Source: Bdellovibrionales bacterium (GTDB lineage Bacteria; Bdellovibrionota; Bdellovibrionia; Bdellovibrionales; UBA1609). From it: DNA of 64,000 nt. Shown here in pieces: positions 2,787 through 31,404 of the stretch. The DNA lies in NCBI GenBank assembly GCA_028283955.1, contig JANQSP010000012.1:4579-68578 (forward strand), in the 5' to 3' direction. The notes below the pieces were generated by a model. The model searched no databases. It had not been told where the DNA came from and saw nothing but the letters and a program-made list of their open reading frames with translations. Position numbers and translations under genes: made by a program. Numbering within the stretch: the stretch's first letter is position 1; each line of letters opens with the position of its first letter.

Positions 2787-3035
2787 CTATTGTGTATGTT
2801 CGCTATCACCAGAAGTACCTGTATTATTGGCCCCTCGTTGATCGGCCAAATACTCTGCTTTTTTTCTTGTTTCTTCAGGATTTTCTTCTCTGCTCGTTTC
2901 TGTCGCGGAAGGGTTACACGCGGAGGTAGTACTGCCCGCTTCACTGGCATCATCTCCACCCCCCGGAGCTCTGCACACCACCTCAGCTACAGAGGAAAAA
3001 CAAAATAAAAAACTCACTAACAAAAACCATCTCAT
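2787..3035 (-). CDS. Small secreted low-complexity protein, 82 aa; positional counterpart of the Bdellovibrio hit-locus protein Bd0108
   Basis: Strong SD (aaggag) 8 nt upstream of the ATG. Signal peptide MRWFLLVSFLFCFSSVAEV. The mature part is rich in G/S/T/D/E/N and has 2 Cys. It is the last gene of the Tad operon, after the YD-repeat gene. Confidence 0.7.
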   Translation of the reverse strand: MRWFLLVSFLFCFSSVAEVVCRAPGGGDDASEAGSTTSACNPSATETSREENPEETRKKAEYLADQRGANNTGTSGDSEHTQ

Positions 3036-3190: not shown

Positions 3191-4828
3191 CTAAATGGTA
3201 ATATCCGTGGCGACCGGTGAGATAATCTCTAAAAAACCATTGAATACACTGGCCACCTGGGCAGCCACTGTAGGATCTGTTCTGGTTTTACTGGTGTCCA
3301 CTCGACCGTTTTCATCGTAAAAAACCTGAATGGAACCCACCCCGGGCCTGGTTATTTTTTTAGGCTTACTGTATTTTTCATTATAAACCACAATAATACG
3401 CTTTTTACTCTGATCCCGCATTTCACTTATACGACCAAGGTGGTCCCTCTTTACAGAAACCCAACGACCGGTGTTATTCTGTTTAGCCATCACCAAATGA
3501 CATTTATTAGGGTCATAGGAAATTTGTGTCTGTACCTGACGATTGACCTTTTTACCCTGAAGATACTGCACCACCACCTGAGTGGGTTTGCGGCATTTAT
3601 TATTGTACTTGGAAAAAAGCACCTTCCGGCCCGGCTCCGCCCGGGATTTTAAAAATCCATTATCATAATAAGCGTAACGAGTGGTCACTCTGTTACGAGT
3701 CACAGAGAGGGGGGAACCTGTTTTTAAGTCATAAGTGATATCGGCAATCTGTCCATTCACCTTTTGCCTTGCACGATAAAGATACTTACTTCCATCTTTT
3801 TTCTGCTTATTCCAAAACTCATAACGACTTACATTGGTCACTCTTTTTCCACAGGTTTTCTTCACATCCGTCCAATAGTGATCTTTGTTTCTTTTATTAT
3901 TCACATATTTATATTTTTCCAAACAACCTCTTCTATCCTTAAAGGACATCACCCAATCACGATCTGTATTGTAGGTTAAAGATTCATAAGTATTATCCGG
4001 GTAGCGATTCTTAATTAAATTATGATAGCCATCATAAAAATGTTGGTACTTTTCCCCTTTACTGTTTATCACCGCCACCAAATTATCCGCTTTAATCGTG
4101 TATTCCGCTTTAATTTTATTGGGGCCGCTTATAACCAAACCACCTTTTGTATATTTAAAACGCAAACTTCTTCCTCTCCCATCCATCACTTTTACAATTT
4201 TACCTTTTTTCCTTTGTATTTTTATCCAGTTCGCCGATTTATCCATCTCCTGGATAAAGTTCCCGTTTTTATCAAAAATCTGAACCTGCCCGTTAGCTAA
4301 AAAACGTTTATATTGACTACCTGTAAACTGAACACTTTCACTTTGCCTTCCCACGGCCTGGTAAACCTGTCCACTTTGCGCCTTTCCCTTTAAACCAAAA
4401 GCCCGAATCAGTTCAGACCGTAAAAGGGCGGACTTTTTAACATCTCTTTCCACTTGCGCGATATATTTTTTCGAAAGACCTTTTTTCTTTTTTACTTCCG
4501 CCATAATCCTTTTAATCATGGCCGAGCGATTTCCTTTTACCGCCTTGGATGCATAAGAGATCTCCGCTCCTCCTCCGCATTCCACCACCATCAGTGTGTT
4601 ATCCGGCATCACTTCCAACCTGGTTTCCAGATTGGAACACCAGCCATAACCAAAAAGCCCTTTGTAAAGGGAACGCGAATTATAAGTACGCTCCACTAAA
4701 AGAGGAAGACCCGCCCCTGGCAGAGCAATATCCACAAAAGTTTTAGTGTAATTGGCGTTTTTAGTGTCTATAAGACCCTGAGCCTGAAAGATAAATAATA
4801 GAGAAAATACCCAAATCTTATTTTTCAT
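3191..4828 (-). CDS. Exported YD/RHS-repeat family protein, 545 aa (Bd0109-like position)
   Basis: Signal peptide MKNKIWVFSLLFIFQAQG. RTYNSRSLYKGLFGYGW matches the N-terminal motif seen in Rhs-family proteins. Several YD-type repeats are present (RYAYYDNGF, ITYDLKTGS, ISYDPNK, VFYDENGRV). SD is gggaggaag. Confidence 0.8.
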   Translation of the reverse strand: MKNKIWVFSLLFIFQAQGLIDTKNANYTKTFVDIALPGAGLPLLVERTYNSRSLYKGLFGYGWCSNLETRLEVMPDNTLMVVECGGGAEISYASKAVKGNRSAMIKRIMAEVKKKKGLSKKYIAQVERDVKKSALLRSELIRAFGLKGKAQSGQVYQAVGRQSESVQFTGSQYKRFLANGQVQIFDKNGNFIQEMDKSANWIKIQRKKGKIVKVMDGRGRSLRFKYTKGGLVISGPNKIKAEYTIKADNLVAVINSKGEKYQHFYDGYHNLIKNRYPDNTYESLTYNTDRDWVMSFKDRRGCLEKYKYVNNKRNKDHYWTDVKKTCGKRVTNVSRYEFWNKQKKDGSKYLYRARQKVNGQIADITYDLKTGSPLSVTRNRVTTRYAYYDNGFLKSRAEPGRKVLFSKYNNKCRKPTQVVVQYLQGKKVNRQVQTQISYDPNKCHLVMAKQNNTGRWVSVKRDHLGRISEMRDQSKKRIIVVYNEKYSKPKKITRPGVGSIQVFYDENGRVDTSKTRTDPTVAAQVASVFNGFLEIISPVATDITI

Positions 4829-5852: not shown

Positions 5853-8138
5853 TTAAGAAGCCTTTTTTGTCTCATTTGAGGAAATATTTTTCTTTCCCGG
5901 TACTTTTTTCCCAGGAAGAGATTTACCCGCCAAGCCCGGTCTCCTGCCGGAAAGTCCCGGTTTCCCGGAACGCAGTAAGGATTGCTTTTCATTTTTCGTG
6001 GCCGAACTGGTCGTGAACAGAGAACGGGGAATATTTAACCCTCTTTGCTCAAATTTTTCAATAAAAGTGGGGATCATCCCCATAGCCTGAAACTGACCAA
6101 GGATTTTTCGATTTTTATCAAAACCCTCTTCCTTAAATCGAAAAATTTCCTGCAAAGTCACTGTATCCCCCTGCATGCCCACCACTTCCGTAACACTTTT
6201 TATTTTCCGACTTCCATCGCTGAGCCTTCCAATCTGAATAATAAGATTTACGGCTCCGGACACTTGTTCTCTAATAGCTTTTATCGGTAAATCCATTCCG
6301 GCCATCAAACACAAAGTTTCCAAACGGGCACAGGCCTCGCGGGGATTATTGGCGTGAACCGTTGTCATGGAACCATCGTGACCTGTATTCATAGCCGAAA
6401 GCATATCCAAAGCAGCCCCGTCCCGACATTCCCCCACCACAATTCGATCCGGCCTCATACGAAGAGAATTCCGGATCAAATCCCGGATTGTGACAGCCCC
6501 TGTGCCTTCCATATTAGCCGGACGGGTTTCCAACCTCACAACATGCTCCTGTTTGAGCTGCAATTCAGCGGCATCTTCCACTGTAATAATTCTTTCATTG
6601 GCCGGTATAAAGCTGGACATTACATTAAGCAAAGTGGTTTTTCCCGAACCTGTTCCTCCTGAAATCACTATGTTCAGCCCCTGTTCCACACATATTTTAA
6701 AAAACTCCGCCATGGCTGAAGTCATGGATCCAAAACGATCCACCAAATCATTTATAGTCACTCTATCCTGAGGAAATTTCCGTATAGTGACAGCCGGACC
6801 ATCTATAGATAAAGGCTCAATAACCGCGTTCACCCTGGAACCATCCGACAAACGGGCATCCACATAAGGGGTTTTTTCATCAATTCTTCTTCCCAGGGGA
6901 GTCACTATTCTCTCTATCACATTCCTCAGTTGTTGATTGGAAGTAAAAGTAACAGGGCTTGTTTGAATTTTTCCGTTTTTTTCACAAAAAATCTGGTCAC
7001 AACCATTAACCATGATTTCCGTCACAGATGAATCCGCCAATAGCCCTTCCAAAGGCCCCAGTCCCAAAGATTCATCCAGAACCTGTTTAATAACCTGACT
7101 TCTTTCCTGACGGGAAAGCCCCTGCCCTCTTTTATCCACTAACTTGGATACCACTATCTGAGTCTTATTCCTTAACTCCTGCCTGGAAGCCTCATCTTTA
7201 GCCTGAGTAAGGTCCTTCTTTAAATCCATCTCTTTTATCAACTCTGTATGCACCTGCATTTTTAAAATAACCAAAGGAGTTAATCTTCTTTGACGTCCCT
7301 GAAGAGGGGAGGAAGAAGCACTACCAGCGGAAGAAGGGGATGCCTGTTGAGTGGGAGATTTTTTGGGACGAATAAGCGCTTTGTTTTTTTGTAACACCCC
7401 TCCCACCAGTCTTCTCACCAGATCATGATAAGCCTGAGATAAAGGAGCCGTGGGACGGGATAAAACAAAAGGCAGAGCTGATTGCAAAGCCTGATTTGAG
7501 GTCACATCATCCTTCGGCAAAACCGCCACAACAGGTAGTCTTAAACTGTTCACAATAGCATTAGTGGCCACTCCCCCCTGACCGGCCTGGTTGATAACAA
7601 TCTGAAATAATTGCGACGGCAAAGTGGCGGCACTTAATTCATTTAATAATCTTTTTGTCTGGTTGACCACCAACACTTCCGGTGTCAGCACCACCAAAAT
7701 AGCACTGGAGAGCTCCAACACGGAAAACTGCAAGGGACTTAAAAAACACCCTACATCCACTACAATATATTTAAAAATCTGCGAAAGACCATATAGTTGT
7801 TTTTCAAAAAGAGCCGGGTCCCCTGATAAACTTTGCTCAGGCCCTGTCACCGCTCCCAGATAGGCCAAACCGGTTTTATGATAGGCTAAAAAATTCTTTA
7901 CATTTTGTTCACTGAGCACACCGGAAAAGCGAGTGACATCCGACACCGTTTTTTGCGGCCTGATACCAATAATAACACTTTGATCTCCACAGCTTTTTTC
8001 ATCCAGATCAACCAATAAAGCCGGGGTCTTCATTTCCTTCTGAATGGCCAGGGCTAAATTGGCAGCTAAAACACTTTTTCCCACTCCCCCTTTTCCACCG
8101 GCAACAGCGATTAAATGACATTTTGGATTCAAAGACAT
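5853..8138 (-). CDS. cpaF: Fused MinD/ParA-type (CpaE/TadZ-like) ATPase and CpaF/TadA secretion ATPase
   Basis: 761 aa. Residues 14-22 are GGKGGVGKS, a deviant Walker A of the ParA/MinD type. An S/P/Q-rich linker follows, then a CpaF core with Walker A GGTGSGKTTLLN. The C-terminal tail is rich in K/P/G. Confidence 0.9.
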   Translation of the reverse strand: MSLNPKCHLIAVAGGKGGVGKSVLAANLALAIQKEMKTPALLVDLDEKSCGDQSVIIGIRPQKTVSDVTRFSGVLSEQNVKNFLAYHKTGLAYLGAVTGPEQSLSGDPALFEKQLYGLSQIFKYIVVDVGCFLSPLQFSVLELSSAILVVLTPEVLVVNQTKRLLNELSAATLPSQLFQIVINQAGQGGVATNAIVNSLRLPVVAVLPKDDVTSNQALQSALPFVLSRPTAPLSQAYHDLVRRLVGGVLQKNKALIRPKKSPTQQASPSSAGSASSSPLQGRQRRLTPLVILKMQVHTELIKEMDLKKDLTQAKDEASRQELRNKTQIVVSKLVDKRGQGLSRQERSQVIKQVLDESLGLGPLEGLLADSSVTEIMVNGCDQIFCEKNGKIQTSPVTFTSNQQLRNVIERIVTPLGRRIDEKTPYVDARLSDGSRVNAVIEPLSIDGPAVTIRKFPQDRVTINDLVDRFGSMTSAMAEFFKICVEQGLNIVISGGTGSGKTTLLNVMSSFIPANERIITVEDAAELQLKQEHVVRLETRPANMEGTGAVTIRDLIRNSLRMRPDRIVVGECRDGAALDMLSAMNTGHDGSMTTVHANNPREACARLETLCLMAGMDLPIKAIREQVSGAVNLIIQIGRLSDGSRKIKSVTEVVGMQGDTVTLQEIFRFKEEGFDKNRKILGQFQAMGMIPTFIEKFEQRGLNIPRSLFTTSSATKNEKQSLLRSGKPGLSGRRPGLAGKSLPGKKVPGKKNISSNETKKAS

Positions 8139-10732: not shown

Positions 10733-11269
10733 TTAATCTCCACATTTTGCACTCAGACAAATCCCGTACCCCACCATGATCCAGGCCGGACCTACTTTTT
10801 GATTTATATTCCGATCTTCAATTTCTTCTATTTTATAAGTATGCTCAGGGTCGGATAAAAATTCACTCCGATCCGCGTAGCTGACACTTCTAAAATCCAC
10901 CCGACGCAAAGTGGCCGTAAGTGGGTCATCCGGATTTGCTTCAGAGGCAATATAAGAAAACCGTTTACCATGACCACTGAAGTTGCTCCCGTTATAATCT
11001 TCACGATAATATTGATCTCTCACATCATCACTCAGAATGGAATATTCCTGTCTTGCAAAATCCCTTAAATAGGAAAGATCTGAGCGATTATTAAAAAGAA
11101 AAAAAGTGTAATTTCTGGCCGCAATGGAATTTAAGATCGCCGTATGAGCGATACCCCAGGAACCCAGCGTGGCTCCCAACAAAATAAACATAACCCAGAT
11201 AATAGGAAGAGCCTCCAGCATGGCCAGGCCCCTTTGATTTTTTATAAACTGTTTTGACTTGTTTTTCAT
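10733..11269 (-). CDS. TadE-like pseudopilin
   Basis: N-terminus is MKNKSKQFIKNQRG/LAMLEALPIIWVMFILLG, a TadE-type processing motif. The track ORF starts at a TTG at 11311; I prefer the ATG at 11269. Confidence 0.7.
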   Translation of the reverse strand: MKNKSKQFIKNQRGLAMLEALPIIWVMFILLGATLGSWGIAHTAILNSIAARNYTFFLFNNRSDLSYLRDFARQEYSILSDDVRDQYYREDYNGSNFSGHGKRFSYIASEANPDDPLTATLRRVDFRSVSYADRSEFLSDPEHTYKIEEIEDRNINQKVGPAWIMVGYGICLSAKCGD

Positions 11270-11304
11270 TTCACCGCCACTCGCGAATCTCACTTCCTCT
11301 TTAC

Positions 11305-11910
11305 TTAACAACCATTATCGTGAAAAGGCTGATAGCTTATTGTAGCCGAACTTACCGGTATACTTCCATGCTTATCTAATATAAGCTCCCATCTCTTATT
11401 ATTAAATTGCTCACATTCCGTTATTGTTGGCTCTCTTCCAAGATAAGAGCCGATAGTTGTCTCAAAAAAAGCCTCATTTTCCTCAGTACCTCCCCATATA
11501 GTGTCCACTTCCAATACCTTAGGTATAAATTTTGTCCACACTCCATAAAAGAGATTAGGTGCCCCACTGGCAGGAGGAAAACTTCTATTCAAACCCAAAC
11601 CCTCCCCCGATAAATCACTGGCCTCAGTAATTCTAAATAAATCCGGCTTGAAAAATTTATTTAAATGAAGACTGCTTACCAAATCGTTATATTTTTCCAT
11701 AGCCGCTTGTCGTTGATAACCTTTTGAACCATGGCTTAAAAATAAATCCCGGCTGGCAGCATAAGTTATATACTGTGTGACCTCGGTCACGGCCAAAGTA
11801 AAAGTCATAACGGAAAAAAGCATCACAAAGCTCAAAATTAAAATAAAACCCAGTAAAAACTGAACTGTAAGGCTACCTCTACAAGAAAAAATAAAGCGCT
11901 TTTGATTCAA
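11305..11910 (-). CDS. TadE/TadG-like pseudopilin
   Basis: 201 aa. N-terminus is ...SCRG/SLTVQFLLGFILILSFVML, a hydrophobic pilin-like segment with Q in place of E. Confidence 0.65.
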   Translation of the reverse strand: MNQKRFIFSCRGSLTVQFLLGFILILSFVMLFSVMTFTLAVTEVTQYITYAASRDLFLSHGSKGYQRQAAMEKYNDLVSSLHLNKFFKPDLFRITEASDLSGEGLGLNRSFPPASGAPNLFYGVWTKFIPKVLEVDTIWGGTEENEAFFETTIGSYLGREPTITECEQFNNKRWELILDKHGSIPVSSATISYQPFHDNGC

Positions 11911-12014: not shown

Positions 12015-12275
12015 TTAATTGGGATTCACACCCTCTTGAGAATACATTCTCCTAAAATAATTAGGATGATTAGCCATGGCATCCTGTCTTTTTGCCCAAC
12101 TCCCTGATTCTATCATACCATTAACTGTTTTCCAGGGTCCGGCAACAAAACGATGAACCACTTTACCGTCTTTTAGTCCCTTTTTAACAAGATAACCCAT
12201 GGTAACCAGAAGGGCCAAAATCAAAACCATCTCTAATGTGGCCTGCCCTTTTTGAGATTTTATTCTTCCAAACAT
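12015..12275 (-). CDS. Pilin-like protein, 86 aa, with a prepilin-type N-terminus
   Basis: MFGRIKSQKG/QATLEMVLILALLVTMGYLV has a G-x4-E motif followed by a hydrophobic helix. It lies inside the Tad operon. Confidence 0.7.
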   Translation of the reverse strand: MFGRIKSQKGQATLEMVLILALLVTMGYLVKKGLKDGKVVHRFVAGPWKTVNGMIESGSWAKRQDAMANHPNYFRRMYSQEGVNPN

Positions 12276-12297: not shown

Positions 12298-12780
12298 CTA
12301 ATTAATAAAATAAAAAGAACTGAGCCACCCTAAAAACAAACTGACAGAAAAGGGAAAACTATGAAGCATATCGGAAGAAGGTTTTTTTAGCTTAAGCAAA
12401 GAGAGAAAATTGACATACATGACACCTGTTTTTTTATCCAGAATCACTTTTATAAGACCCAAAACAGCCCCCCAAAAAAAAGCACAAATGAGGCTAACAA
12501 TTAAAGCCCTGGGGGACAGCACCAAAGCCAACACAGCATAGAGTTTCATATCCCCGCCCCCTATTATCTTCAACAACACCAGGGGAATACTGATTCCCAA
12601 GGCGATCAGTAAATTCAGTAAAGCGGGAAAAAGCCCCTGCACACCCTGAAAAATCAAAACCGAAAACAGAGCCACAGCCAACAACACAAGAATAAGAATA
12701 TTATGAATTTTTCTGGACCTTAAATCATCCAACACAGCGGAAAGTAAAATGAGAGCGGGTAAAATATAGTTAAAAAACAT
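12298..12780 (-). CDS. cpaA: Prepilin peptidase CpaA/TadV (A24 family, no methyltransferase domain)
   Basis: 160 aa, polytopic. The two Asp motifs are LDDLRSRKIHN and GGGDMKL. Confidence 0.85.
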   Translation of the reverse strand: MFFNYILPALILLSAVLDDLRSRKIHNILILVLLAVALFSVLIFQGVQGLFPALLNLLIALGISIPLVLLKIIGGGDMKLYAVLALVLSPRALIVSLICAFFWGAVLGLIKVILDKKTGVMYVNFLSLLKLKKPSSDMLHSFPFSVSLFLGWLSSFYFIN

Positions 12781-12895: not shown

Positions 12896-13093
12896 TTATG
12901 GCTCTCTCCACTGAATAGGAGCTGAACTGGTAGTCCAAAAACCCACCCCGGTGGCCACATGTTTTTCCACCCGGGCGGAAAGAAAAGGAAGGTTTTCATT
13001 AAAGTTATTTACGACACCATGTTGAGGATGCATAAACAGACCTAAAATAATGAGGCCATACACAGAAAGCAACAACACTAGTTCGGCTGTCAT
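12896..13093 (-). CDS. Small membrane protein of the Tad operon, 65 aa, pilin-like hydrophobic N-terminus without a leader
   Basis: Strong SD (ggaggagtggag) upstream of the ATG. An in-frame stop lies 8 codons upstream, so no longer leader is possible. N-terminus is MTAELVLLLSVYGLIILGLF. Confidence 0.6.
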   Translation of the reverse strand: MTAELVLLLSVYGLIILGLFMHPQHGVVNNFNENLPFLSARVEKHVATGVGFWTTSSAPIQWREP

Positions 13094-13133: not shown

Positions 13134-13319
13134 TTATTCACTAAAACCCATTACTTTTCCGCTTAAATCACCTATCTTCTTCCCTAGCAGTTCTTTGAGT
13201 TGATTTCTAAAAACAACGGCCAGGCCCACAACAGCCACCAGAATCAAAACATATTCTGCCGTTCCCTGCCCGGACTCATCTTTCCAAAGCTGAAGAGCCA
13301 CTGACTTTAATTTTTTCAT
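13134..13319 (-). CDS. flp: Flp-family type IVb pilin
   Basis: 61 aa: MKKLKSVALQLWKDESGQG/TAEYVLILVAVVGLAVV. This is the canonical Flp G-x4-EY motif followed by a hydrophobic helix. First gene of the operon; SD is aaggagg. Confidence 0.9.
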   Translation of the reverse strand: MKKLKSVALQLWKDESGQGTAEYVLILVAVVGLAVVFRNQLKELLGKKIGDLSGKVMGFSE

Positions 13320-13621
13320 AAATCCTCCTTATAAATTAAAACCTATCTCTTATCATCGGATAAACATAAAAAACCTTTAACTCCTGAATTCACAAAATGA
13401 TTAAACGAATTTTTATTTCACCTCCTCTTTTAAAGTCTCATTTTGATACAATCCTTCCGACTGATATATTTTCAACAAAACAAAAATAATTAGGATAAAA
13501 GGCTTACCAAGTGAAAGGAGAGTTATTAAAAAATATAACCTGTTCACTTATTCCATTTATTTGTCAGCTCAATCTATTTCAATACTGTTCCGATAAATCA
13601 ATGTGAATTAAGGGGTTTTTT

Positions 13622-14596
13622 ATGATTGTTCCCGCCTTTTCCAAACTAAAGAAAAATAAAGGTCAGGCCATAGTGGAATATGTCCTGATTTTAACAGTAG
13701 TGGTATTGGTTATGGGAGCGATCCTTTTAAGACTCAATCATGGGTTTAAGAGATGGGGTAAGTCCATAATAGGTACGGAAGGATATATTGCCTGTTTAAT
13801 GCAGACAGGACTTTTACCCGGACAACCCACAGCCCATCTCAGCAATCCTTGCGCGGGCATTAGTAATATAGACTTCACAGCCGAGGGAACTTCTTCCGGC
13901 AGTTCTTCCTCCTCTTCTTCTTCTTCCTCCTCTTCCAGTAGTTCCTCGTCTTCTTCCTCTTCCTCCTCTTCTTCTTCTTCCTCCAGTGGAGGGGGGGGGG
14001 ATGATCCGAACGGAACAGACACCAGTAACAGTAGCAACAATTCTTCTCAATACAATAATAGTAACAGTTCCGGTAAAAAAAGTCGCAAGCCCGGCAGATC
14101 AAAAAACAAGGGAGGGTCCGGCACCAGCGGCCAGTACATCTCTGTCAATAACTCCAATATGTTATTAGAGGATGACTTACACCAAAACAACAGCGATACA
14201 GGTGGAGGGGGGGGCCGGTCCTCAAGGAAAAAAAAGAAAAAGATGGGTTTTAGAGATGGTCTTACCGCCTCTGACAGTAAACCGGGTCACTCCGGCCGAC
14301 GCTTCAGAGCCGTAGGGTCCTATGGTTATATGTCCACTGACCAGGAAGAACAGGAAAGAAGAAATATTCCTATTGCTTTATCCAGTGGAGGAGGAAAAAA
14401 ATCAAAATCTCAGGAAAAAGAAAAAAGAAGCCACCTGGTTAAAAAAGATAAAAAGAAATCCTCCGGGGATGAAGGTGAAATAAAGCCCTGGAGTTTTGGA
14501 AACATATTTCGCATTGTCCTGATTATTCTTATCATCGGTGTCGTTTTATTCCTTATTATCAGTCAAACTTCCTCCGTAAAAAAATCCCTGAAATAA
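13622..14596 (+). CDS. Atypical Flp-like prepilin fused to a poly-Ser/low-complexity region and a C-terminal TM anchor
   Basis: 324 aa. N-terminus MIVPAFSKLKKNKG/QAIVEYVLILTVVVLV is an Flp motif. It contains 29 consecutive Ser, G/N/S/K-rich tracts and a C-terminal IFRIVLIILIIGVVLFLII. SD is aagggg. Divergent from flp. Confidence 0.75.
   Translation: MIVPAFSKLKKNKGQAIVEYVLILTVVVLVMGAILLRLNHGFKRWGKSIIGTEGYIACLMQTGLLPGQPTAHLSNPCAGISNIDFTAEGTSSGSSSSSSSSSSSSSSSSSSSSSSSSSSSSSGGGGDDPNGTDTSNSSNNSSQYNNSNSSGKKSRKPGRSKNKGGSGTSGQYISVNNSNMLLEDDLHQNNSDTGGGGGRSSRKKKKKMGFRDGLTASDSKPGHSGRRFRAVGSYGYMSTDQEEQERRNIPIALSSGGGKKSKSQEKEKRSHLVKKDKKKSSGDEGEIKPWSFGNIFRIVLIILIIGVVLFLIISQTSSVKKSLK
13901..13987 (+). repeat. 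(TCY/AGT)29 poly-serine codon tract
   Basis: Counted codon by codon: 29 uninterrupted Ser codons, mostly tct/tcc. Confidence 0.95.
13991..14000 (+). repeat. G10 homopolymer inside the CDS
   Basis: gga-gggggggggg-at, encoding GGGG. A second G8 run lies at 14207-14214. Confidence 0.95.
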
Positions 14597-14612: not shown

Positions 14613-14693
14613 CGTCATTCCGGACTTGATCCGGAATCCACATCGGAGTAAAAACAGGAGTGACATAGATTCTGAATCAAGTTCAGAATGACG
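14613..14693. repeat. Twin inverted hairpins (REP-like element / bidirectional terminator)
   Basis: cgtc-attccgga-cttga-tccggaat (14613-14637) and attctgaa-tcaag-ttcagaat-gacg (14669-14693). The two units are reverse complements of each other. They differ at stem positions (cc/gg versus tg/ca), and each hairpin stays fully paired. Confidence 0.8.
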
Positions 14694-30705: not shown

Positions 30706-31404
30706 TCACTTCATATACAGATCTTCAAAAGAATAAAGCCCCGGAGGTTTTTTCACCAACCACTTTAAAGCTCTTAAAGCCCCCTCAGCAAATAAAAGCC
30801 GACTGAGAGCTCTATGCTCCACTAGAACAACTTCTTCCGAACTCTTAAAATAGATTCGGTGAGTACCAAATTCCCGGCCCTTACGAATACTTTTTATTTT
30901 TAATTTTTTTCGAGCAAAAGACGGAAAGTGTTTCTGTAACTTTAACGCCGTACCACTGGGTTTATCTTTTTTATTTTTATGGTGAATATCCTCCAGTAAA
31001 ATATCACAAGGTTGCTCGGAAACATTATTTATCCACCTTTTTATTTGCCAGATTCCCCAACTCATATTTTCTTCATAAAAAACAGGAATTTTATGTGAAG
31101 CCAATGCAAGTAACTTTTTATGTGACACCCCTAAAGCTGTCGTTCCGCTCACAAAGGGTTTTTTATTCTCAAGACTCCACCTTAAGGCCATCTTAAATAA
31201 CTCCGGTGAAGAAAAATCAATCACACCTTCCACCCGCTGTTTATTCCATCCATCAAAAGCTTTCAGAGGAGGGGCCTGCTCCACCAACACAAAACCGGAG
31301 TTTCTTTTTCCTATCAGTTCTTTTACAGCCCCCCCCATACGTCCGGAAGAGCCGCTCAAGCCCACCTTTATTTTAACTGATACTGACTGTTTTTGTTTTC
31401 TCAT
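30706..31404 (-). CDS. dapB: 4-hydroxy-tetrahydrodipicolinate reductase
   Basis: KVGLSGSSGRMGGAV (NAD(P) loop) and HHKNKKDKPSGTALKL, matching the DapB motif E-x-HH-x-x-K-x-D-x-PSGTA. Confidence 0.85.
   Translation of the reverse strand: MRKQKQSVSVKIKVGLSGSSGRMGGAVKELIGKRNSGFVLVEQAPPLKAFDGWNKQRVEGVIDFSSPELFKMALRWSLENKKPFVSGTTALGVSHKKLLALASHKIPVFYEENMSWGIWQIKRWINNVSEQPCDILLEDIHHKNKKDKPSGTALKLQKHFPSFARKKLKIKSIRKGREFGTHRIYFKSSEEVVLVEHRALSRLLFAEGALRALKWLVKKPPGLYSFEDLYMK

Follow-up and report, generated by a model that had tools for sequence, protein, structure and literature searches.

The stretch of DNA considered here, 64,000 nucleotides of contig JANQSP010000012.1 from a Bdellovibrionales bacterium (assembly GCA_028283955.1; hereafter the window), carries a locus for Tad (Flp) pili, which Bdellovibrio requires in order to attach to its prey and invade it (PMC5430801; bioRxiv 10.64898/2026.07.08.737194). 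Beside the pilin gene of this locus, flp1, and transcribed away from it, lies a gene whose product begins like a Flp prepilin, continues as a long low-complexity chain and ends in a second membrane helix. The question raised by this gene is what a pilin-type N-terminus does on a protein that has a membrane helix at its other end as well. We find that the arrangement is conserved in an undescribed protein family and that the gene recurs beside flp1 in related loci, where a common promoter motif is found. The reading that we favour, and to which we give an even chance as a whole, is that the product (the target protein in what follows) is a processed, Tad-linked, membrane-tethered Flp-like module.

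Results

The target protein carries a Flp-type prepilin module

The open reading frame (ORF) of the target gene starts with ATG, runs for 324 codons and has a ribosome-binding site, AAGGGG, six bases upstream at 13610-13615. Exactly 302 bp separate its ATG from the start of the divergent flp gene (13319, minus strand), so that coordinates and translation agree with an earlier, sequence-only reading of this DNA, in which a 324-residue ORF diverged from flp across 302 bp; the codon list likewise contains the 29 consecutive serines noted there. The neighbour that had been called a bona fide Flp is one by its match to PF16982 (Table 1). The target protein begins MIVPAFSKLKKNKG/QAIVEYVLILTVVVLVMGAILL, where the slash marks the predicted cleavage site, and its sole cysteines are C58 and C77. 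The serine run is followed in turn by GGGG, an N/S-rich tract and K/R-rich tracts.

As in Flp prepilins, a short basic leader ending in glycine at position -1 precedes a G/XXXXEY motif and some 20 hydrophobic residues within a long N-terminal helix. The target reads G/QAIVEY and continues as VLILTVVVLVMGAILL, with a Kyte-Doolittle mean of 2.72. The glycine, G14, is invariant in three alignments of the family described below (47/47, 24/24 and 39/39 members), and G14, Q15, E19 and Y20 are all invariant while the mean column identity of these alignments is just 24-29%. When a profile built from 39 family N-termini was compared with one built from 11 Flp1 orthologues, drawn from the same set of loci as the family, hhalign gave a probability of 97.1% and an E-value of 5.4e-11, with the GQxxxEY motifs in register; a BLASTP comparison of the target with the neighbouring Flp gives a short 8/14 match. 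The parallel with Flp drawn in the sequence-only reading is upheld by these comparisons. A lack of the motif in all homologues, which that reading had named among its possible refutations, is not what we find, G-Q-x3-E-Y being invariant in the family alignments.

Library searches gave weaker signals. Among the 39 family N-termini the recurrent Pfam families are all weak matches, TadE (PF07811) being the commonest with 18, followed by Class_IIIsignal with 16 and Flp1_like with 11 (best E 5.6e-4); Flp_Fap matched 1/39, and none was reported at the gathering score. Scans of the full target protein against Pfam and NCBIfam returned only noise. The sole sequence match in the PDB, from a profile search, was the mature Caulobacter Tad pilin PilA (8u1k), which aligned in register at an E-value of 1.4 and is not significant. 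The AlphaFold 2 (AF2) model has a helix at residues 15-49 (13-49 in a model of the N-terminal part) with block-mean predicted local distance difference test (pLDDT) scores of up to 93, and a short helix at residues 55-62. Foldseek comparison of the full-length and N-terminal models with the PDB gave no match.

The target protein thus has the leader, the motif and the hydrophobic stretch of a Flp prepilin and, in the window, a position beside a tad locus that is not universal in its family. It falls below the Pfam gathering score, and it is not a small mature protein (about 40-70 aa, helix-loop-helix) free of any other membrane segment. Because it fails the size, single-helix and hidden Markov model (HMM) threshold criteria of a Flp pilin, we do not class it as a pilin; it is a protein carrying a Flp-type prepilin module.

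The architecture defines an undescribed family

An exhaustive HMMER search with the 92 N-terminal residues of the target against 1.84 billion cluster representatives (E<=1e-3) identified 293 homologous clusters at 50% identity, and the family is at least as large as this. Nearly all of the top 150 matches are 267-414 residues long; shorter ones were assumed to be fragments, and counts of architectural features rest on the 146 full-length members in this size range. The sequence-only reading had pointed to a homologue search as the check on its proposed architecture, and the two-helix arrangement is indeed general: 145/146 full-length members have a C-terminal membrane helix. Residues G14, Q15, E19, Y20, G51, C58, P66 and Q315 are invariant in a 47-sequence alignment of 25% mean column identity. 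The family consensus runs from the leader through GQAxVEYxLxL plus a hydrophobic stretch and a Q/N-rich amphipathic stretch to GxYxACLLETGxLP; after a gap of about 10 residues come a cysteine, the low-complexity linker, SFGxxxR, the membrane helix and GGQxxQxSKS.

No member of this family has a name other than 'hypothetical protein', and the sole organism label is 'Bdellovibrionales bacterium'. A word-index protein search with the 90 N-terminal residues of the target found no match, and with family alignments it found 24 and 14 matches, all unnamed or 'hypothetical'. Pfam and NCBIfam do not place the family, one member of which has a single precomputed accession, PF12751. We conclude that this is an undescribed family, which occurs widely in Bdellovibrionales metagenomes and has so far been found only in Bdellovibrionales-type genomes. 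The source genome is not alone in having this architecture; what is exceptional is the 29-serine run. The view of the target as the most novel-looking protein of the window therefore holds in that the family is undescribed, and fails as a claim of uniqueness.

The homologues also bear on whether the gene might be an artefact, either the product of repeat collapse or misassembly or a piece of non-coding DNA left open by chance. The low-complexity serine tract and the G10 and G8 homopolymers are error-prone in sequencing. Against this, both ends of the frame are conserved in at least 146 full-length homologues, with orthologues at the same genomic position, a separate Logan assembly contig carries an identical 8973-bp stretch, and the mixture of serine codons (TCT, TCC, AGT and TCG) makes a collapse unlikely. 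Misassembly, which had been named as the finding that could overturn the sequence-only reading, is ruled out for the gene by the homologues and the Logan contig. An artefact is barely conceivable and is refuted for the gene as a whole; only the exact numbers of serines and guanines could be wrong.

A cysteine pair and a variable disordered linker separate the two helices

The first helix is followed by a short module in which G51, C58 and P66 are accompanied by C77, which is conserved in at least 90% of the 47 aligned sequences. Exactly two cysteines, placed between the two helices, are present in 142/146 full-length members. Their position just after the first helix fits a periplasmic disulfide, which in the target would join C58 to C77.

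Beyond the cysteines the chain is predicted to be mostly disordered. In the AF2 model pLDDT is below 50 over residues 77-128 and 130-225, and about 210 residues (77 to ~285, at low confidence) are mostly disordered, with one short helix at 238-247. Linkers in the family measure 154-298 residues, with a median of 183; they are rich in glycine (15.5%), serine (15.1%), lysine (9.2%) and arginine (7.0%) and are net positive in 86% of members. The serine tract of the target is encoded by an imperfect DNA repeat of period 9/18 with 70-86% matches (Tandem Repeats Finder). The longest serine run among the top 150 relatives is 10, and other repeats occupy the same position: (SSSSG)n in P0154, (TGGTYSSS)n in P0162, (PTPSSSGAS)n in P0016 and a 17-residue repeat, (GGGEYKISGSGGDYKNY)n, in P0017. 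Since relatives carry unrelated repeats at this position, the conserved feature appears, from these comparisons, to be a variable disordered spacer and not a serine-specific glycosylation module. The length and repeat type of the linker vary while both ends are kept, as expected of a spacer. Of the Ser-rich disordered tether proposed earlier, the disordered spacer is borne out by AF2 and by the family, and the specificity for serine is not.

In the window, which comes from a genome of 39% G+C, G runs of eight or more are confined to the G10 and G8 tracts of the linker coding region, if two C8 runs (at 31329 and 55001) are set aside. The two G tracts are not conserved: among 11 orthologous genes only L084 has G7-G8 runs. 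These tracts could be hot spots of slippage or sequencing error. Phase variation through them was considered and rejected, as they are missing from the closest relative and from most orthologues.

The C-terminal helix has conserved residues and no recognisable sorting signal

The last hydrophobic segment of the target, IFRIVLIILIIGVVLFLII, which precedes the tail SQTSSVKKSLK, has a 19-residue Kyte-Doolittle mean of 3.39. The AF2 model has a helix at 292-322 with block-mean pLDDT of up to 85; the model as a whole, a pilin-like helix, a mostly disordered stretch and a C-terminal helix, accords with the second hydrophobic helix and basic tail described in the sequence-only reading, where such a prediction had been suggested. 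Besides the invariant Q315, I301 is conserved in at least 90% of sequences, and F292, G293 and R297 reach at least 90% in the near clade.

With its SFG motif, hydrophobic helix and basic tail, this end of the protein has the three-part look of a sorting signal, as in LPXTG, PEP-CTERM, GlyGly-CTERM and MYXO-CTERM proteins, and low-complexity Ser/Thr/Gly stalks often precede such signals. The target might on this account be a released or tip-displayed pilus subunit or adhesin, the helix and tail being cleaved off and the Ser-rich stalk possibly glycosylated. Unlike proteins with such signals, however, the family has neither a CTERM model match nor a cognate enzyme nearby: when 26 C-terminal segments were scanned with NCBIfam and Pfam, PEP-CTERM, GlyGly-CTERM and MYXO-CTERM were absent from the matches and LPXTG (Gram_pos_anchor) matched just 1/26, at an E-value of 0.19, and the listed neighbours include no sortase-, exosortase- or rhombosortase-like gene. 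Moreover, polar residues in and after the helix are conserved (Q315 and the K/S tail), which is unusual for a discarded signal, the serine tract is not conserved, and the locus already encodes TadE/F-like pseudopilins for the tip. With no recurrent HMM match among the 26 segments and no sorting enzyme among the listed neighbours, a C-terminal sorting signal is rejected. The tip subunit that had been offered as an option in the sequence-only reading is accordingly very unlikely, given a C-terminal anchor with conserved residues and no recurrent sorting-signal family.

The gene recurs beside flp1 and also away from tad

At least 11 distinct loci have the gene next to flp1/flp2/tadV. It is adjacent to and divergent from flp1 in the window and in L082, L083, L085, L086, L092, L095, L097, L100, L109 and L112, and is 1.3-2.2 kb from flp1 in L098, L101 and L002; protein identities across all these loci go down to about 34-40%. 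DUF2203 and/or nadE lie downstream in most loci, including several without tad genes nearby (L087, L102 and others), a pattern that, taken by itself, would also suit a gene lying at a conserved boundary. In L112, where nadE and the remaining tad genes are missing, the gene stands next to a flp1-flp2-tadV mini-cluster, whereas Bdellovibrio sp. HCB288 (L003 5637-14784) has the same tad order with neither tadV nor a target-family gene beside flp1. These two loci speak in favour of a real link between the gene and the flp module. TadV has been reported absent from the tad loci of B. bacteriovorus, and the HCB288 locus agrees. The joint lack of tadV and the target-family gene in HCB288 is a correlation from one genome.

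A candidate sigma-28 promoter precedes both the target gene and flp (Table 1). The attack-phase consensus of B. bacteriovorus, TTAAG-N16-CCGATA, is found at 92/140 attack-phase promoters and is attributed to FliA (PMC3627812); in both B. bacteriovorus and B. exovorus the flp1/TAD promoter depends on FliA (PMC5430801). In the 260 nt that precede the GQxxxEY codons, CCGATA occurs in 17/23 non-redundant orthologous loci, compared with 7.8% of 321 control ORFs from the same loci, and is itself preceded, at a distance of 16 nt, by a T[TC][CA]A[GT] box. Three more loci (L112, L109 and L002) were compared, of which only L112 has CCGATA, at a spacing to TTAAG of 13 nt and not 16 nt. Overall, a -10 box of this type precedes the gene in about two-thirds of loci; the motif is also present upstream of the off-tad copies L084 and L090. 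Matches with two mismatches number 27 in the window for 18 expected, so that a single match is not significant on its own and the argument rests on conservation across loci. The predicted target promoter is thus of the type that marks the FliA attack-phase regulon and resembles that of the B. bacteriovorus TAD operon. From the motif it is probable that the gene is co-expressed with the Tad genes; a specific partnership does not follow, because FliA controls many attack-phase genes. Recurrent adjacency and a common type of promoter together lend weight to the link between target and flp suggested earlier.

Nevertheless, several observations weigh against a Tad-linked, processed module. At least eight loci (L084, L087, L089, L090, L091, L099, L102 and L103) lack tad genes in the vicinity. 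The gene is linked to DUF2203/nadE no less often than to flp, and part of the synteny may be historical; the gene is missing beside flp in HCB288 and so is not a universal Tad component. The target itself has no match to PF04964 (Flp_Fap) or PF16982 (Flp1_like) at E<=1 and reaches no Pfam pilin threshold, its TadE match having an E-value of 0.07 and 13.7 bits against a cut-off of 22.9. By the positive-inside rule, a periplasmic loop would not usually be as rich in K/R as this linker, though long loops are exempt, and a role as an anchor at the pilus base is argued from geometry alone.

Several of these points suit a different account, in which the target is a generic hairpin protein of the inner membrane. 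Its first helix would be an uncleaved signal anchor, similar to a Flp leader by descent or by convergence, and its function would be unrelated to Tad, for example envelope spacing or the binding of peptidoglycan or polyanions by the basic linker; adjacency to flp would be synteny inherited at the boundary between tad and DUF2203-nadE. The gene is kept with DUF2203-nadE-RNase T where tad is absent (L087, L089, L102, L096 and L104-L106), copies stand beside atp, nuo and microcompartment operons, no pilin HMM is reached at threshold, and FliA covers about two-thirds of the attack-phase promoters of B. bacteriovorus, so that the promoter is not Tad-specific (PMC3627812). An uncleaved anchor, however, needs no invariant Gly at -1, Gln at +1, Glu at +5 and Tyr at +6, residues kept in more than 140 sequences that are otherwise about 25% identical. 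The in-register match to the Flp1 profile is likewise unaccounted for, and L112 retains the gene with flp1-flp2-tadV even though nadE and the rest of tad are gone. We regard a generic hairpin protein as a possibility to be reckoned with, though a doubtful one.

The surrounding Tad locus

The minus strand 5' of the target gene holds a complete Tad locus (Table 1), which also encodes RcpC, a secretin and a T2SSF platform protein. In the translation of the TadV-type peptidase the Asp-containing segments LDDLRSRKIHN and GGGDMKL are visible, which we take to be the two conserved motifs of prepilin peptidases. Flp1 and the 86-residue pseudopilin-like protein share a G/Q..E leader with the target; the leaders of the 192-residue protein (G/LAMLE) and the 201-residue protein (G/SLTVQ) are more divergent. 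A perfect TTAAG-N16-CCGATA lies at 12369-12395 on the minus strand, inside the 3' end of tadV and about 95 nt upstream of the gene for the 86-residue TadE-like protein, and may be an internal promoter for the pseudopilin genes.

The same make-up is found in 'tad locus 1' (the hit locus) of B. bacteriovorus, where the unusual TadZA fusion also occurs and the RHS protein is Bd0109 (bioRxiv 10.64898/2026.07.08.737194; PMC3818213); Bd0109 has 550 residues, RHS repeats and a signal peptide. The best genome match of the TadZA fusion is an uncultured Bdellovibrionales metagenome-assembled genome at 63% identity, which places the window in a poorly sampled lineage of Bdellovibrionota. Relatives of TadA/TadZA at 36-63% identity occur in many phyla, including Chloroflexota, Firmicutes, Acidobacteriota and Actinomycetota; most of the matches cover the whole query with its TadZ part, and some the TadA part only. 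The 65-residue ORF between flp1 and tadV resembles the 'trimmed' Flp2 type (MXXEY and a hydrophobic stretch), but with leucine for tyrosine. Counterparts of 59-81 residues occupy the same position in L082, L083, L085, L086, L109 and L112, and the trimmed Flp2 of B. bacteriovorus, Bd0118, is required for predation (PMC5430801). At the far end of the locus, the 82-residue ORF is a candidate counterpart of Bd0108, likened to it by description alone.

The target gene is followed by nadE and genes for an RNase T-like exonuclease, an HTH_25 protein, a TPR protein and NDK. Two perfect short inverted repeats (Table 1) fall within the 147 bp that separate the target stop codon from nadE; no T run lies behind either, and neither was called as a terminator. 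A scan of the target region for intrinsic terminators and sigma-70 promoters gave no signal beyond shuffled expectation.

Table 1. Features of the target gene, its upstream Tad locus and off-tad copies (window coordinates unless a locus is named; a slash marks a predicted prepilin cleavage site)
Feature	Position	Strand	Description
Candidate sigma-28 promoter of target	13569..13595	+	TCAAT-N16-CCGATA, 27 nt before ATG
Target gene, whole	13622..14596	+	324-aa protein: Flp-like N-terminus, disordered linker, C-terminal membrane helix
Predicted class III (Flp-type) leader, aa 1-14	13622..13663	+	MIVPAFSKLKKNKG; ends in invariant Gly at -1; putative cleavage
Flp-like hydrophobic helix, aa 15-49	13664..13768	+	QAIVEYVLILTVVV...; Glu +5, Tyr +6
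Cys-pair module, aa 51-80	13772..13861	+	G..GYIACLMQTGLLPG...C; C58, C77
Linker, aa 81-288	13862..14485	+	Low-complexity, mostly disordered, net-basic; includes the 29-Ser run
29 consecutive Ser codons, aa 94-122	13901..13987	+	Lineage-specific
G10 homopolymer	13991..14000	+	Encodes part of GGGG
G8 homopolymer	14207-14214	+	Encodes Gly run in target ORF
C-terminal module, aa 289-324	14486..14593	+	WSFGNIFR, membrane helix, SQ, basic tail
Inverted repeat 1	14618-14636	+	TTCCGGA-cttga-TCCGGAA
Inverted repeat 2	14669-14689	+	ATTCTGAA-tcaag-TTCAGAAT
Candidate sigma-28 promoter of flp	13354..13380	-	TTAAA-N16-CCGATG, ~35 nt upstream of flp ATG
flp1	13134..13319	-	61-aa Flp prepilin, SG/QGTAEY; PF16982, E 5e-12; 11 orthologues aligned
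65-aa ORF	12896-13093	-	Starts MTAEL (MTAELVLLLSVYGLIILG); no leader, no Gly
TadV-type prepilin peptidase	12298..12780	-	160 aa; PF01478 (Peptidase_A24), E 2e-11; candidate processing enzyme
TadE/F-like protein 1	12015-12275	-	Leader G/QATLE
TadE/F-like protein 2	11305-11910	-	Leader G/SLTVQ
TadE/F-like protein 3	10733-11311	-	Leader G/LAMLE
TadZ/CpaE (MinD/ParA-like)-TadA/CpaF ATPase fusion	5853-8138	-	761 aa
DUF6531/RHS-repeat protein	3191-4828	-	545 aa; end of tad locus; resembles Bd0109
82-aa ORF	2787-3035	-	Signal-peptide-like start, rest low-complexity and acidic/Ser/Thr-rich; just downstream of RHS gene
Off-tad copy, L084	L084 10001-10972		Between atpB and atpE
Off-tad copy, L090	L090 10001-10969		Beside and divergent from nuoA
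Off-tad copy, L091	L091 10001-10834		Just after bacterial-microcompartment operon

Discussion

Relationship to known envelope proteins

The nearest likeness of the target protein is to the Flp/Fap (type IVc, Tad) prepilins, such as Flp1 of B. bacteriovorus (Bd0119) and PilA of Caulobacter (PDB 8u1k), with which it shares its N-terminal module and the company of flp, flp2 and tadV. Flp prepilins, in contrast, have 45-80 residues and the target is five to six times longer; it has a cysteine pair, a disordered linker of some 200 residues and a second membrane helix that they lack, and it scores below the Pfam Flp thresholds. Its C-terminal membrane helix would keep it from being released in the manner of a normal pilin.

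It also recalls TadE/TadF (CpaJ/CpaK) and TadG/CpaL, larger tad-encoded proteins that have a Flp-like N-terminus of the TadV type and work together with the pilus but do not form the fibre. These, however, have folded periplasmic domains (a vWA domain in TadG) and no C-terminal membrane helix; the target has neither a TadE motif above threshold nor a folded periplasmic domain. A looser resemblance is to Bd0108, an intrinsically disordered hit-locus protein of B. bacteriovorus (PMC4267844) that is expressed in attack phase and encoded at the edge of the Tad cluster (PMC3818213). Both would be disordered envelope proteins from the edge of a Tad cluster, the target with an attack-phase motif upstream. 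Unlike the target, Bd0108 is a 101-residue, Sec-exported soluble protein encoded at the opposite end of the cluster, and the two are compared by description only. Overall, the target would work most like a TadV substrate of the Flp/TadE type. We found no description of such a protein in the Tad and Bdellovibrio literature consulted, nor does one figure in the published parts lists that were read. In literature searches, one of them directed at pilin-like proteins with a C-terminal membrane helix, we found no report, for any type IV filament system, of a pilin-type N-terminus tied permanently to the inner membrane by a long disordered tether.

A proposed tethered module at the pilus base

The favoured reading, a processed and membrane-tethered Flp-like module, can be set out as a sequence of events. 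The gene would be transcribed in attack phase from its sigma-28/FliA promoter, in parallel with the divergent flp-tad operon. The product would form a hairpin in the inner membrane, its two ends cytoplasmic and some 240 residues periplasmic, and the TadV encoded in the locus would cut off the 14-residue leader after G14. The helix so exposed, with Glu at +5 and Tyr at +6, could then, much as a pilin does, dock onto the Tad platform or at the base of the Flp filament. Unlike a pilin, the protein would remain tied to the membrane by its C-terminal helix through a flexible tether of about 180-300 residues, and might serve at the base or platform of the Tad pilus, where it would anchor, terminate or organise it. 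This specific placement, as opposed to a fibre or tip subunit, we advance only tentatively, at less than even confidence. The base is preferred to the tip because it is sterically unlikely that a tether would pass through RcpC and the secretin beside the fibre, and because the locus already has TadE/F-like candidates for the tip.

Two variants can be set beside this reading. In the first, the TadV-cleaved helix is built into the Tad filament itself while the C-terminal helix stays in the inner membrane, so that the target is a pilin on a membrane leash. We consider this unlikely. If true, its disordered chain of 180-300 residues would be a mechanical leash; it could set or sense pilus extension as a ruler or stop, store elastic energy for retraction without a dedicated retraction ATPase, or report the tension of a prey-bound pilus to the cytoplasm during invasion, and rapid changes in linker length by repeat expansion, of poly-Ser in the target and of other repeats in its relatives, would tune pilus behaviour between lineages.

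In the second variant the target is a decoy, whose tethered helix occupies TadV or the TadB/C platform in competition with Flp1 and so gates or limits pilus assembly, making it a negative or timing regulator and not a structural subunit of the base. All that speaks for a processed Flp-like module speaks for a decoy too; divergent, similarly controlled promoters would fix the ratio of the two proteins, and an engaged subunit that is unable to leave the membrane would be expected to block polymerisation. The conserved cysteine module and the conserved polar residues at the C-terminus nevertheless suggest specific partners beyond competition, and we judge a decoy to be quite unlikely.

Implications for predation pili

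Whatever its exact role, the family can be recognised by a signature consisting of GQxxxEY, GY.ACL..TG.LP, a cysteine, a low-complexity stretch, SFG, a membrane helix and a glutamine, with which several hundred 'hypothetical' proteins in Bdellovibrionales metagenomes can be annotated. Should the family prove unrelated to Tad, it would still be a conserved attack-phase envelope protein of predators. If the target protein is both processed and active at the base of the pilus, it would represent a new class of component of Tad machines, an anchor, terminator or regulator, and would provide a handle on how predation pili are held, limited or retracted. We infer that the family is a conserved, predator-restricted addition, with a function of this kind, to the Tad system that B. 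bacteriovorus needs for predation.

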